A stretch of DNA of 64,000 bases from Escherichia coli (GTDB lineage Bacteria > Pseudomonadota > Gammaproteobacteria > Enterobacterales > Enterobacteriaceae): NCBI RefSeq assembly GCF_044324785.1, contig NZ_CP172127.1. One strand, given 5' to 3'. Of the stretch, positions 43,601 through 55,600 are shown piece after piece (the stretch's first letter is position 1; each line of letters starts with the position of its first letter). The position numbers were made by a program.

Positions 43601-46600
43601 GTAGCTACCGCTTTAACGCGGGTATCCATCGCCGCGTCGTTCAGCGCCATGCCGCCCCAGCCACAAATACCGAGCAGCCCGATACGGTTGCGATCTACCT
43701 CTTTTTGCAGCCCTAAGAAATCCACCGCCGCGCTGAAATCTTCAGTGTTGATATCCGGTGAGGCGACGTTTCGCGGATAGCCGCCACTTTCCCCGGTGTA
43801 AGAAGGATCGAACGCCAGGGTAACAAACCCTCGTTCCGCCAGCGTCTGCGCATACAAGCCGCTGGATTGCTCTTTCACCGCGCCAAATGGCCCACTGACC
43901 GCAATCGCCGCCAGCTTGCGATCGCCACGGTCTTTAGGCAGGTAAAGATCGCCCACTAAGGTGATGCCATATCGGTTCGGGAACGAGACTTTACGGTGAT
44001 CGACTTTCTGGCTCTCGGCGAACGTTTTATCCCATTTATCTGTCATGGACACAGGGGCATTAGGATTGGTTGAATCAGCATAACTCATTGTCGTGACTCC
44101 ACTTAATGATGCGAAAAGCAGCATGGTCGGCATCGCGGTTTTTAGCGTTCGGGTGAAGGCTTTCATAAAAATCCCCATAAAAAACAACAGAGAGATACAG
44201 GTTTCCGACGGACAACGCTGCGGTGCTTTACTTTGATGGGGTCATTATAGTGAGCAGAATTAGTGCTGATTAGGGGGCGATTAATGCTAAGATTAATACC
44301 ATATTGTTATAAATTAATGCGGAGATTGCCGGCATGAAGGAGGGATGTTTCAATGGCGAAAAGGGAGAACTATAACGAGCTGTACCTGTTTATGCAGGTG
44401 GTGCGAGAAGGCAGCTTTACCGCAGCGGCTCAGCGGCTGGGTCTTGCTCAGTCAGGAGTCAGCCGTTCTGTTCGCGAGCTTGAAGAAAGGCTGGGCGTCC
44501 AGCTGCTAGTGCGCACCACGCGTAAACTGTCGCTGACACAAGCAGGCGAGCAGCTCTACCAGAAGACGGCATCTGGATTTGAAATGTTAGATCTTGGGCT
44601 TGCCACGCTGGCGCACTATCGAGAGACGCCCTCCGGCACTGTGCGTATCAATGCCAGCCAGCACGCGATTGATAAATGCCTGCTGCCAAAGCTGGCGGTA
44701 TTTAAACAGCGATATCCTGATATCCGGCTTGAACTGATAAATGAGAGCCGGTTCGTCGATATCATCGAGGAAAGATTCGATGCAGGTGTCCGCCTGGGGC
44801 CTGAAGTCGGCCAGGGTATGGTCGCGGTACGCATCACGCCCGATATGGAGATGGCAATTGTGGGGACTCCGGAACATTTTCGTCGCTATGGTTTTCCGCA
44901 AACCCCGGCGGATTTAAAGGCGCATCCCTGTATCGCCTATCAGTTTGCCGACGGCAGCGTATACCAGTGGGAACTCAATCAGGATGATAAAAAAATCACT
45001 CATCGCCCTGAAGGGCAATGGGCCTTATCCGACAGCTATATGGAAGCAGAAGCAGCCCGGCTGGGCCTCGGATTGGCCTATGTTCCTGTTGAACTGGTCG
45101 CGGATGATTTAGAACACGGTAAGCTTATCAGGGTGTTGCAGCGTTACAGCCTGCGAATGGAGGGATTGTTTCTCTATTACCCTCATCGCAACGTCTCCCC
45201 CGCCCTGCGGATGGTCATTGATACATTGAAAATCTGAACGTTAACAACGACCGACTCTTCACTGTGCAAAATTGTGTCAGGTAGTCCCTCTGCGTTCAAT
45301 TCCAGGGTCTGTACACCCTGCTTTGAGCGAGAAAGAGGGGACTATCCAGCAATGGAGATCACCCAAAAGAAAAAACCACCAGGCTCCCTCGACAACCTTC
45401 ATCCGGGCATTTAGCCTCAATCAACATTTTTATATCTGTCAGGTTACTTCATTATGAAAACTGATCATCATCGTTGTTTTTGTTGCAATAGTAGAATACG
45501 CGTATTTATTCCTCCATCTCTATTAATAACGGCAATAAACTGTTCACTTCACTGATATTTAAAATATACATCCTTTTCAAGCTGTTCAGCGGCGTAAGAA
45601 AAAGTATTAATTATGAATTCGACGATTTAACCATTTCTGGCTGATTGGTAATCATCTGTGATTAATGCTGGTCTATTGATTACGCCAGCACCCTCTCTAG
45701 CTTATTCACCGCCGCCACATACTTCGCCGGATTTTTATCTTTCAGCACCGCCAGATTACGTTGCTTCCAGCGAATAGCCGGAAGATGCTGAATTTCAGGA
45801 TAGCGATACCGCGACCAGTCAGGGCTGTTTTGCTTAAAACTGAGCAAGAACTCGCGATCCAGATCCGTAAGATGTGACTTCAACGCCTGCGGCAGCAAAG
45901 TCGTTACTGACAGCAGCGATTCCAGCGACGTTTCCTGCTGAGTCATCCCCGAAAATTCCTGAGCATACAGCGTCGTGATCCGCTCTGTATCCCAGTTTGG
46001 GGCCAGCAACTCGGCAATGGGGCGGGGATGGCCTGCCAGATAACAAAGAAAACCGTCAAAGATCTCCCGCATCAGTCCCGGTTTCTCCAGCATATTCAGC
46101 ACATCAAACAGATCGCGCGGGTGCTGACGATCAAGCGCTGCGCAGATTTTACCGCCATAAAGATCCGCCAGCGAGACGACACTCATGGTGGTGAAGCCAT
46201 ACTCCATTTCCACACGTTCGCACACAGGCATTTCTGCCGGAGGCAACAACAGCCCGCGCCAGACCGGGCTAACCTCGATCTTAATCTTTGCATCAGCGGT
46301 ATTCACAATGATGCGCTTTTCATCCGCTTTATTTTCCTGCCGAATCGCGGTGATCCCCGGTCTGCCGTTCAGCGATGCAGTAATCCTCTTCAAAGCGTCG
46401 TTGATAGCCGCCAGATCAGTATCGCGATCCGCAAAGCTCTTATACGCCAGATCAATATCCACCGACAGACGGGGAAAATCCTGCACAAACAAATTGATTG
46501 CCGTGCCGCCTTTCAACGCGAAACAGGACTCCTTCGCCACATGCGGCAGAGCAGCCATCAACAGCTTAACCTGCCGGGCATAACTATCACGCAGATCCAT

Positions 46601-52600: not shown

Positions 52601-55600
52601 ATGTGCTTACAGCCAAACATGGTTATGATATTGATTATATTTACTATGCCTTAAGACTTGAATTAAAGCGATTGCGAGAAAAATCTCAAGGCTCGCAAAC
52701 AAAGTTTCTGACAATGCCGATTTTGACCAGTATATCGCTAGGAAACCTAGTCGAGACTGAACAATCGACAGTTTCAAGAGTATTAAAAATACTGGATAAA
52801 AAAATCGCTCTCAACAATCGTATCAACGCCGAGCTGGAAGCGATGGCGAAAACACTGTATGACTACTGGTTTGTACAGTTTGATTTCCCTGATGCCAACG
52901 GAAAACCGTATAAAACCTCCGGCGGGAAGATGGTGTACAACGCCACGCTGAAACGGGAAATTCCGGCGGGGTGGAATATTAAAAATCTTGGCGATATAGC
53001 GGAACTATATCAGCCTAAGACCATTTCAGGTAACGATTTTATTGATGATGGTGAATATCTTGTATATGGAGCCAACGGTATTGTAGGAAGATTCAATAAA
53101 TATAACCATGAAGAACCTGTCGTTACAATCACCTGCCGTGGAAATACGTGCGGCAATATAAACGTCACACGACCATATTCATGGATTACAGGGAATGCAA
53201 TGGTGGTTAAGCCAAAGTTTAACTATATTTCACCTTATTATATTTATAATTTATTGTCGATATCGGAAGTTGATAAAGTCATTACTGGCTCTGCTCAACC
53301 TCAAATTACGCGAGCAAACCTAGCTCCACTTAAGGTTGTTGAACCAGCAGAGGACATTACGCAAAAATACTCAAAGTCTGTTGATGCTTTTTTTAAAAAG
53401 CATATCTCAATATTAGATGAAAATGATAATTTATTAAAACTCCGCGACTGGCTCCTCCCCCTGCTTATGAACGGACAGGTCACGGTCAAATAATCCCCGC
53501 CGTGTTTTGCGAGGCGCATTCCAGATCCACATTGCGCCGCGCTCACCGCTGTAAAACCGCTTGCCGTTCATAACCGATCGAAGTATCTTTCTCCCGCGCC
53601 TGCAAAATCAGGCGTCGGGATTAGCCTCCTGAAAACCGTTACAGGCGACACTTGACGCACCAGCGTCTTTTTTGTGTCGTGCGTTCGGCTACACCTCAAT
53701 GGCGGGCCGGGCGGGGGCGTCGCAAGACGCGCCGGTTTCCTGTAACGCCGGTAAGGCTAACCCCGTCCGGTTCCGCCACCCATGAGATTAGCCTCTCTAG
53801 TGGCGGACATAATAAACCGTTACAGGAGATGCCCTATGGCTACAATCCTCACCCCTGACTGCGATTTACTCGATCTGTTATCCGTTCCCTTCAATGCCAC
53901 CACGGATTTTACTGTCCTTGCCGATTACTGCACCCGCTTCGCCGAAACCCTGATAGAAACCGACGATCCCGCGCTGCGGCTGGCGCTGAGCGGACGGCTT
54001 CACGCGGCTCTTGCGCTACTGCAACCCACACTGCATGACCCCATCCCGCCGCATCTTACCGAAAGCCTGACCGTTAATACCCTTCCCGCCACACCAGAGC
54101 ACTTTATTTCCGAACCCGATTCCTTGTGCGAATACTGCCTCGCACTGCTCCAGCTTCTGCTGGAACGCCCGGCGGAGCCAAAAATGGAGCAAACCCTGAC
54201 CGGGCTGCTGTGTGAGCTGGTCTGGAATTTCACGGAAGGACTCAAATCCCCGCGCTGGCTGCGTACCGCCGACGGCGTAAAATTTATCAGTGAGGTGGCC
54301 GCATGATGCAACAGGACTGGCATTCCACCGACATTATCGCCACGCTGAAAAAGCGGGGAACGTCTCTGGCGGCGCAGAGAAAAACTCATTGCGGACGCGC
54401 TGTAAATATCGTCAGAAATCATCTGGCCTTCAAGGTACTTTGATAGCAAAGGCAAGCAGGCTGGTTCAGTCCCGTGTTTCTCTTCTTGCATTTTCAGAAA
54501 TGGGAGGCTGGGAGTCTATCGAAATGGTTCGTCGATATGCTCACCTCGCACCTAATCACCTTACCGAACACGCACGGCAAATAGACTCGATCCTGAACCC
54601 ATCGGTCCCAAATTTGTCCCAGTCAAAAAATAAGGAAGGTACTAATGATGTGTAACTTATTGATTTAAATGGTGCCGATAATAGGAGTCGAACCTACGAC
54701 CTTCGCATTACGAATCTGTAGAACCAATCATAACTATCTGTTTTAGCAAGCATTAACCGCATTCACCAAGCAATAGTTGATGGCACAAACAGAAAGTTGA
54801 TGCATGATGTTGTCATGTGTATGTCACAAATACGGCACAACGATCTTCAAACATGTAGCCACCCAGCATAGAAGAGCACAAATCCTTGCAATCCAGTGCA
54901 AAGCTTTGTGTACCTTAGTTTTGTCTCATAGGTAATTCTGCTTTAACTGCGATGCAGGAATCTGTCACCAGACGCACGTCTCGTTGTTTTATGGTTTTCC
55001 GTTCATGATTAATATGTTAGCTTGTCAAAGTTTGTGTTTAAGATATGGTGATTGATGCAATGTTAAGCGTTCAGATGACTCCACAAGCAAAAGTTAGCTT
55101 CGAGGAGCAATGTTTTTTTCATGCTTCATGTCTTGTTGTTGCCCCAATAAATGTTGGAGCATTCTCCTACTTTGGCGCTAATTGTATGCTCGGCGGCTTT
55201 ACGATGGGTAGATTTTGTTCAGTTGCTCCAGGAGTAAAAATTGGCCTTGGCGAGCATGAAACTGGGTATTTTTCTACGCATCCTTTTTTCTTTGGCTCAA
55301 AAAATGGTTTTAAAATCCCTGATGGTATAGGAATGCAACGCGACCTCTCTCAACAGAAGCATGGTATACCAAGAATTGGTCATGACGTATGGATAGGTGC
55401 AAATGCGGTTATCAGGCGAGGTATAACTATTGGTACTGGCGCTGTTATTGCTGCTGGCGCTATTGTCACCAAAAATGTCGATCCATATTCAATCGTAGGT
55501 GGCGTTTCTGCAAAACACCTAGGGTACAGATTTGAGGAATCAATCATCAAAGAGTTACTGGATAGCCAATGGTGGGAATATGATTTAAGCTCATTTATTG

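Follow-up and report, generated by a model that had tools for sequence, protein, structure and literature searches.

An AbiE/hsdRMS defence island and a P22-like prophage stacked at thrW of Escherichia coli: a probable history of three insertions and subsequent deletions

The tRNA gene thrW is a well-known integration hotspot (PMC7545054), and the yagP-proA interval with this tRNA-Thr (CGT) gene has been catalogued as E. coli defence hotspot #33 by Hochhauser, Millman and Sorek (2023, PLoS Genet; PMC10121019). According to the parts of that paper and its supplements that were searched, hotspot #33 was detected in 555 genomes, with defence systems there in 49.5%; AbiEii was reported at hotspots #5, #33 and #37 only; and a 7-kb AbiEii island was listed at hotspot #33 with its mobile-element type unassigned. 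The same parts hold no dissection of island backbone, integrases or prophage relics. Here we analyze a window of 64,000 nucleotides (nt) from E. coli contig NZ_CP172127.1 (assembly GCF_044324785.1), whose positions are used throughout, and in which an island carrying an AbiE toxin-antitoxin pair and hsdRMS, the genes of a type I restriction-modification (R-M) system, lies beside a P22-like prophage at thrW. The locus is an ordinary E. coli defence hotspot, already catalogued, and both defence systems are of textbook types. Two features set the window apart from the entry for hotspot #33: a P22-like prophage comes after the island, and the R-M module of the island is probably inactive. The comparison set comprised 5,426 complete E. 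coli genomes together with Salmonella and Klebsiella relatives. We propose, with a probability of roughly 0.78, that the present arrangement arose when three elements inserted one after another, site-specifically, at the 3' end of thrW, with deletions afterwards.

In strain K-12 the same integration site is occupied by CP4-6 (thrW ... intF-ptwF), the cargo of which is unrelated, as an earlier note on this DNA had stated. The CP4-6 integrase, IntF, and Int-L, the integrase found in relatives of the window island and missing from the window copy, are both P4-family proteins (Arm-DNA-bind_3 and Phage_integrase domains), and both genes stand beside the distal thrW repeat, reading away. IntF is, however, only ~22-27% identical to Int-L, and CP4-6 retains both thrW repeats and its integrase, whereas the window island has neither. 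The left-end integrase of B2-type strains, Int-L, was considered as an IntF orthologue, and this was rejected since identities of 26-27% over parts of the proteins point to a separate P4-family lineage. Across strains the thrW site was found empty or occupied by CP4-6, a vat island, lambdoid prophages or the AbiE/hsd island; presence is variable and the site fixed.

The defence hotspots of P4-like satellites (Rousset et al. 2022; PMC9122126) offer a further comparison. The likeness consists of a P4-family integrase placed directly before a variable defence slot and of RNA-based immunity of the CI/C4 type. None of psu, delta, sid, alpA and the alpha primase gene is present in the window block, in which every open reading frame (ORF) is otherwise accounted for, and in the complete relatives, for which no specific screen was made, none appears among called genes or Pfam matches. 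The label of P4-like satellite was rejected because the core genes that define such satellites are absent.

The features at the junction of island and prophage are as follows.

54303-~54450, plus strand: pseudogene of a Ner-like (HTH_35) regulator, by comparison with an intact homologue of 84 amino acids (aa) in L012 and an HTH_35 gene of 84 aa at the equivalent position in L021 (Salmonella)
54452-54655, plus strand: 3' stub of a phage integrase, 67 codons and a stop, non-functional (tblastn; P22/SfII family)
54670-54715, minus strand: displaced thrW 3' end, the attR-type common core (exact 46-nt match to K-12 thrW and P22 attP)
54716-54926, no strand: phage arm of the attachment site (~83% collinear with attP of HK75, mEpX2, HK542 and SfX)

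Two prophage-free strains support the view that the island and the prophage are separate elements stacked in series at thrW. In N3 the block, the Ner remnant, the stub and the core are joined to an intact thrW-proA, the last 426 nt being 100% identical to the window, and ETEC4070 has the same block and stub at an intact thrW-proA. GPEC172 shows the further stage: the same island is followed by a P22-like prophage, whose own full-length integrase is found at the far end, separated by 14 nt from an intact thrW. The earlier note had described an island and a prophage in series and had held the junction of stub and core to be older than the prophage; both points stand, and the AbiE-hsd block behaves as a separate unit when E. 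coli genomes are compared. Its count of two insertions falls short, as at least three appear to be recorded. The features that it listed are all present, at or near the places it gave.

In the proposed history each new insertion would have pushed the earlier ones away from proA. The oldest layer would be a thrW-specific island of ~13 kb, the defence slot of which holds hsdRMS in the window. Its complete form is represented by Salmonella enterica L021/L022, in which thrW repeats at 34-79 and 13021-13066 flank the island and proA follows. The order there is thrW repeat, Int-L, AbiEii, AbiEi, hsdRMS in the slot, isrK, C4, orf156, the 84-aa HTH_35 (Ner-like) gene, EFASI RNA, an Integrase_1-family gene and thrW. 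Int-L is an intact 439-aa P4-family integrase in this island, and the Integrase_1-family gene is frameshifted. Int-L also survives in E. coli: in B2-type strains as a pseudogene with 95% aa identity to the Salmonella protein, located after a second copy of stub plus core, and in RM9088 as its last 74 codons.

In Klebsiella pneumoniae the same scaffold occupies a tRNA-Phe island bounded by 18-nt repeats, with a different P4-type integrase adjoining tRNA-Phe. Compared with the thrW islands, AbiE retains 93-94% aa identity and the Integrase_1-family protein 67-74%, whereas the P4-type integrases share only ~22%. The P4-type integrase thus tracks the target tRNA and the backbone does not, and because of this co-variation we take Int-L to be the probable site-determining enzyme of the island. 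A different reading would have the island integrated by a canonical P4-type integrase adjacent to thrW, lost in the same deletion that truncated the Ner gene, with Int-L a leftover of another element of CP4-6 type. The K. pneumoniae scaffold does end with a P4-type integrase at its tRNA, the vat island of STEC299 has a truncated P4-type integrase next to thrW, and Int-L shares its unusual position with IntF of CP4-6. In Salmonella, though, the ~560 nt between the Integrase_1-family gene and thrW contain no called gene and, in a six-frame scan, no integrase-like ORF; the thrW repeats there enclose Int-L together with the island; and Int-L adjoins abiEii in Salmonella, in B2-type E. coli and in RM9088 alike. 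We consider this reading unlikely.

Compared with the complete form, the window copy is reduced at both ends. At the tRNA-proximal end it lacks the last ~16 codons of Ner, EFASI, the Integrase_1-family gene and the proximal thrW repeat, and Ner is fused to codon ~306 of the phage integrase. At the other end a separate event would have removed the distal repeat and Int-L, stopping just beyond the abiEii stop codon: the islands of B2-type E. coli and of Salmonella match the window from 45679-45685 onward, just past that codon, and the left end of RM9088 extends 2.8 kb further than that of the window, including the 74 residual codons of Int-L. The 46-nt core occurs once in the window (chance expectation 0; 0 of 100 shuffles). 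No second thrW repeat was found in the window with up to 6 mismatches allowed and half-sites searched, and ARAGORN detected no intact tRNA in it. Repeats at both ends are seen in Salmonella L021 and B2-type E. coli. The window block has a repeat at one end only and, with Int-L gone, the 67-codon phage stub as its sole integrase sequence; having neither an integrase nor a second repeat, the island would be fixed in place.

The second layer would be one or more lambdoid prophages that carried an integrase of P22/SfII type and entered the regenerated thrW. A deletion reaching from the end of Ner through the tRNA-proximal end of the island to codon ~306 of the phage integrase would then have left the 67-codon stub and the 46-nt core. 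The stub corresponds to residues 306-372 of the 372-aa integrase of FXCREC180 (tblastn). Its last 52 codons are nearly identical to phage integrases, the protein nearly equals the C-terminus of P22 Int in alignment, and from 54497 to the end of the core the DNA is 99.5% identical to the int 3' end and attP of the Shigella phages SfII, SfV, SfI and SfIV. Full-length relatives of this integrase are found in lambdoid prophages, after an upstream helix-turn-helix gene (the position of xis in P22) and early genes; in FXCREC180 this integrase stands at the end of a lambdoid prophage, with 14 nt between it and thrW, and at the equivalent place 08-3914 has a copy truncated at its N-terminus. The stub of the window also ends 14 nt from the core. 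Judged by these homologies, it is the C-terminus of a P22-family phage integrase. By homology it is longer than the ~55 codons first estimated, and the thrW 3' copy beside it, described earlier as 43 nt, is indeed an exact copy, of 46 nt, equal to the stretch that P22 attP and thrW share and identical to the P22 attP core throughout. We also considered the Ner remnant as the helix-turn-helix gene that precedes full-length P22-type integrases; the two have no similarity and the idea was rejected.

The earlier note had regarded the stub as the remnant of the island's own integrase, so that the AbiE/hsd block and stub would be one older island and two insertions would suffice. The stub does stand at the thrW-proximal edge of the block; the stretch from Ner through stub to core is held at >=80% by 798 of the 5,426 E. 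coli genomes, and the whole block at >=80% by 539; and the stub is among the sequences that the two thrW repeats enclose in B2-type strains. Yet the stub belongs to the P22/SfII phage family, with its full-length copies inside lambdoid prophages, and the complete Salmonella and Klebsiella relatives have P4-type and Integrase_1-type recombinases and no such gene. The P22-type stub is missing from the complete island of L021/L022, a form that already contradicts this reading. Ner, moreover, loses its last codons exactly where the integrase homology starts, so that the fusion point appears to mark a deletion joint, and the stub allele varies far more between island lineages than does the island body (81.7% identity for the stub region against ~95%). 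An origin of the stub from the island itself is in our judgement quite improbable.

The stub is a mosaic. Its first 45 nt (54452-54496) are like the int allele found in the prophage of GPEC172, and the remainder (54497-54655) is like that of SfII, which suggests that thrW phages came and went at this site, recombining with the stub through the 3' ends of their own integrases. Two further arrangements were observed. In B2-type E. coli a stub and a thrW core lie on each side of the island (GPEC172, L003 6001-6252 and 16801-17064; L009 likewise). In RM9088 (L004 18115-24209) the stub is followed by a different prophage, with lytic transglycosylase and DUF2213 genes; a copy of the thrW core was found nowhere in this 24-kb locus, the junction being of a different kind.

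The last arrival would be the present P22-like prophage, with its Int protein carrying out strand exchange inside the 46 bp that attP and thrW have in common. At the far end, outside the window, thrW would be completed by the copy of the core that came with the phage, and the displaced host copy would remain at the gene-9 end, at 54670-54715. On the P22 map attP separates int from gene 9, and the gene-9 end is therefore expected beside the displaced thrW fragment; this is the orientation found, in agreement with the earlier description of this end as distal to int. The SfII-type homology stops exactly at 54715, and over the following 210 nt the similarity is to attP arms from other thrW phages, a pattern expected of a recombinant junction and at odds with one contiguous attP. 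A junction of integrase or stub, core and the arm of the resident phage was found in 47 of the E. coli genomes. That the locus holds a single element, with stub, core and arm as the unrecombined attP of the resident prophage and the stub as its own integrase cut by a deletion into the island, is most improbable: although the three are collinear at ~83% over 475 nt with the intact attP of HK75, mEpX2, HK542 and SfX, the identical Ner-stub-core stretch is joined to intact thrW-proA in prophage-free strains, the SfII-type match of 99.5% ends exactly at the core end so that the two sides are of different origin, and in GPEC172, arranged in the same way, a full-length integrase distinct from the stub occupies the far end.

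Several points weigh against the proposed three-step history. The far end of the prophage, with its integrase and an intact thrW, lies outside the window, and the last step is read by analogy with GPEC172. Both stub copies of the B2-type strains start at ~54452-54462 in window terms, which independent deletions would not obviously give. Int-L adjoins the distal repeat and reads away, like IntF of K-12, a position that is non-canonical for P4-type integrases (which are adjacent to the intact tRNA); its integrating role is deduced solely from its co-variation with the target tRNA, and the Integrase_1-family recombinase near thrW in the complete form could be the real integrase. The stop codon in hsdM, described below, could be a sequencing error. 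Gene functions throughout are those suggested by sequence.

The left end of the block contains the following features.

45238-45679, no strand: left junction filler between a LysR gene and abiEii, with a partial second copy of the ykgR region inside
45680-46600, minus strand: abiEii, nucleotidyltransferase toxin, 306 aa, intact (Pfam PF08843, 6e-36; PADLOC AbiEii, 3e-116)
46587-47390, minus strand: abiEi, antitoxin and transcriptional regulator (Pfam AbiEi_3_N and AbiEi_3; PADLOC AbiEi, 4e-78)

The filler contains neither a thrW repeat nor an integrase. The partial duplicate of the ykgR region lies at 45458-45574, just left of abiEii; the full ykgR is at 26155-26271, 19 kb upstream. AbiEii is full length, with 306 aa as in E. 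coli relatives and 309 aa in RM9088, Salmonella and Klebsiella, and is 93% identical at the aa level to the copy in the K. pneumoniae tRNA-Phe island. The abiEi product is annotated in relatives as 260 aa, ending at ~47369. The two genes overlap by 14 nt (46587-46600) in a bicistronic arrangement with abiEi upstream, and the toxin and antitoxin domains are those of an AbiE type IV toxin-antitoxin system; the pair reported in the earlier note is thus confirmed for both genes. The pair appears intact and would function in abortive infection as toxin and antitoxin.

The slot following abiEi holds three genes.

47632-50751, plus strand: hsdR, type I restriction subunit, ORF intact (Pfam HSDR_N, SWI2_SNF2, ResIII, T1R_D3-like)
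50745-52382, plus strand: hsdM, type I methyltransferase, interrupted (N6_Mtase; TAA at codon 5, 50757-50759)
52375-53493, plus strand: hsdS, specificity subunit with two target-recognition domains (Pfam Methylase_S twice; PADLOC Specificity_I, 5e-93)

HsdR, HsdM and HsdS domains are encoded together, as in type I R-M systems, and one of the three frames is broken. In relatives hsdR starts at the equivalent of 47653 (1032 aa); the protein has a distant match to EcoR124I HsdR structures. In hsdM, codon 5 is TAA in the window and GAA in relatives L002, L008 and L009 (alignment). The next canonical start is a GTG at 50910, use of which would cost 55 N-terminal residues. In other respects the gene is well preserved, with 95% identity to residues 1-543 of a 545-aa reference (tblastn). 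Since a type I system can neither methylate nor restrict without HsdM, the stop at codon 5 probably leaves the R-M system inactive. When the 86 nt around the stop were searched by megablast, matches were returned from 10 of the 5,426 E. coli genomes, the best having two mismatches; in this limited check the stop allele was not seen among the 10. A PADLOC run, one of the checks that the earlier note had proposed, confirmed the AbiE and type I R-M components and missed the interruption, its hsdM profile matching from position 57 onward only. The hsdS allele is unlike those of the closest relatives and forms the main gap in cross-genome coverage of the block, the best match of which among the 5,426 genomes has 96-97% identity over 91-93%.

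Downstream of hsdS lies a region noted earlier as GC-rich and repetitive. The region is real and proved to be an antisense-RNA cassette of isrK and C4 type.

53596-53673, plus strand: isrK-like leader RNA (Rfam RF01394, 68 bits against a gathering score of 50)
53695-53783, plus strand: C4-type antisense RNA (Rfam RF01695, 79.9 bits against a gathering score of 45)
53836-54306, plus strand: orf156, 156 aa, conserved, function unassigned (409 homologues across Enterobacterales)

The P1 immI layout is one in which a C4 antisense RNA acts on icd/ant. The cassette of the window resembles immI of P1/P7 (c4-icd-ant) and the isrK-orf45-anrP switch of Gifsy-1 (PMC4825925) in having a terminated isrK-type leader, then a C4-type RNA with a small overlapping ORF, and two short C4 segments complementary to repeats located before the RNA and over the ribosome-binding site (RBS) of the next gene. 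In the isrK leader the first set of C4 target copies is read as TTAGCCT (53621-53627) and CGTTACAGG (53637-53645), followed by a terminator made of a hairpin and T-run (53654-53673). The exposed C4 segments, CCTGTAACG (53739-53747) and AGGCTAA (53754-53760), are complementary to the motif pairs upstream and downstream, with one match of 9-10 nt and one of 7 nt against each target set. These duplicated sets lie at 53619-53645 and 53786-53826, the second covering the orf156 RBS (AGGAG, 53825-53829, 6 nt before the ATG), which overlaps the target at 53818-53827. The small 'ash' ORF that overlaps C4 is frameshifted in the window. The isrK and C4 families score above their curated thresholds, and the order of isrK, C4 and regulated gene is the same in the four relatives scanned with Rfam.

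The cassette probably controls orf156. C4 RNA most likely would pair with the orf156 RBS, as P1 C4 does for icd/ant, and the isrK leader would provide a competing target copy. Unlike the phage switches, the cassette sits in an integrative island, is known here from its sequence, and precedes a gene dissimilar to those for Ant, Icd and AnrP: orf156 has no match in Pfam, PHROG or PADLOC searches, and its AlphaFold2 (AF2) model is a generic four-helix bundle. In the loci examined, homologues of orf156 are always found downstream of isrK/C4, and the module of RNAs, orf156 and Ner is present in 1,006 of the 5,426 genomes. The Ner-like remnant that follows was also correctly recognized in the earlier note as broken; it falls short of its natural end by only ~16 codons, and is disrupted by a frameshift, a stop and the internal loss of ~60 nt.

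Relatives differ in the content of the slot between abiEi and isrK. This slot holds hsdRMS in the window, a UG5-nitrilase DRT in RIVM_C037791, and in Klebsiella a DUF4747 pair. The latter, in K. pneumoniae L016 (7854-9412), consists of a DUF4747 protein and a 185-aa protein without PADLOC match, and is a candidate defence system by position. In each of the three complete relatives that were scanned (L021 11345-11478, L016 11300-11429 and L020 11733-11861), EFASI RNA (Rfam RF02957) immediately precedes the Integrase_1-family gene, a placement which suggests a leader or regulator of this recombinase. A literature search on EFASI, and on isrK together with C4, returned nothing on islands and nothing relevant to EFASI function.

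To the right of the attachment site the window contains the following prophage genes, and the prophage runs on past its end.

55045-55716, plus strand: hexapeptide-repeat (CatB-related) acetyltransferase (Pfam Hexapep; position of P22 gtrABC)
55736-58105, minus strand: tailspike, equivalent of gene 9, with P22 head-binding domain (Pfam PF09008, 1e-64) and a pectate-lyase-like domain
58205-59083, minus strand: ant, at the start of a P22-type immI region (58205-59658; PHROGs, P22 map)
59085-59151, plus strand: sar RNA (Rfam)
59152-59376, minus strand: arc (PHROGs, P22 map)
59404-59658, plus strand: mnt-like gene (PHROGs, P22 map)
59742-60710, plus strand: insertion-sequence (IS) transposase (PHROG 2262, 4e-153), with a local rise in GC to 0.55
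62788-63999, minus strand: gp16-like DNA transfer (ejection) protein (PHROG 770, 2e-155), ending at the last full codon of the window

The prophage has the 46-nt core of P22 unchanged, a phage arm homologous to those of thrW phages and, on the side distal to int, the P22 order of attachment site, O-antigen-modification slot, tailspike, ant, sar, arc and mnt. Unlike P22, the prophage has the acetyltransferase in place of gtrABC, a different receptor-binding part of the tailspike, and an IS in the immI region. Among the 5,426 genomes the best coverage of the prophage part is 56%. The acetyltransferase, encoded between attachment site and tailspike, might act in serotype conversion and is a candidate acetylase of the O antigen. 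The IS transposase sits between the mnt-like and ejection-protein genes, at the position of sieA in P22, and the prophage may be damaged.

The left boundary of the accessory region was also revised. The gene that adjoins the block is:

44353-45237: LysR gene, 28% identical to K-12 YagP

The earlier note had taken this gene for a yagP-like member of the backbone and had begun the accessory region at 45240. At 28% identity it is no yagP orthologue, and this assignment was rejected, the surrounding 3.6-kb segment being itself variable. In an empty-site strain paoD and a yagP fragment are directly followed by thrW, and homology of the window to this strain ends at 41636. Because the segment with the MFS transporter, hydrolase and LysR genes is variable and the LysR protein has such low identity to YagP, the true left edge is 41637. 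The segment itself (41637-45237, after paoD), with genes for an MFS transporter, an alpha/beta hydrolase and the LysR protein, is missing from K-12 and from the empty-site strain. Farther left, Rfam matched an IS009 RNA at 35552-35752 on the minus strand (189.5 bits), adjoining yagU; it occupies an equivalent place in DETEC-P622 (L009 4127-4327).

For annotation, the locus indicates that an integrase fragment beside a tRNA gene need not belong to the neighbouring island, and that counting elements by their integrase remnants would give a wrong count. In the same manner, a defence-finder call of "type I R-M" would overstate the immunity of this strain, hsdM being interrupted. For a phage arriving at thrW, stub and core together would provide a direct repeat of up to 264 bp, depending on the int allele, in comparison with 46 bp for the core. 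The longer repeat could speed prophage loss by homologous recombination, a process that the mosaic stub would fit. The locus has little importance other than for correct annotation, and the only lead, a mildly new one, is the conserved RNA-switch backbone with its swappable defence slot. As a tentative suggestion, which we hold less likely than not to be correct, this backbone of isrK leader, C4 antisense RNA, orf156, Ner-like regulator, EFASI RNA and Integrase_1-family recombinase, together with an interchangeable P4-family integrase, may define an undescribed group of tRNA-targeting islands of 10-13 kb in Enterobacterales, always carrying AbiE and one swappable defence slot, in which the RNA switch might sense phage infection or control excision. 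If this is true, new defence systems might be sought in the slot, the DUF4747 pair of Klebsiella being one example.

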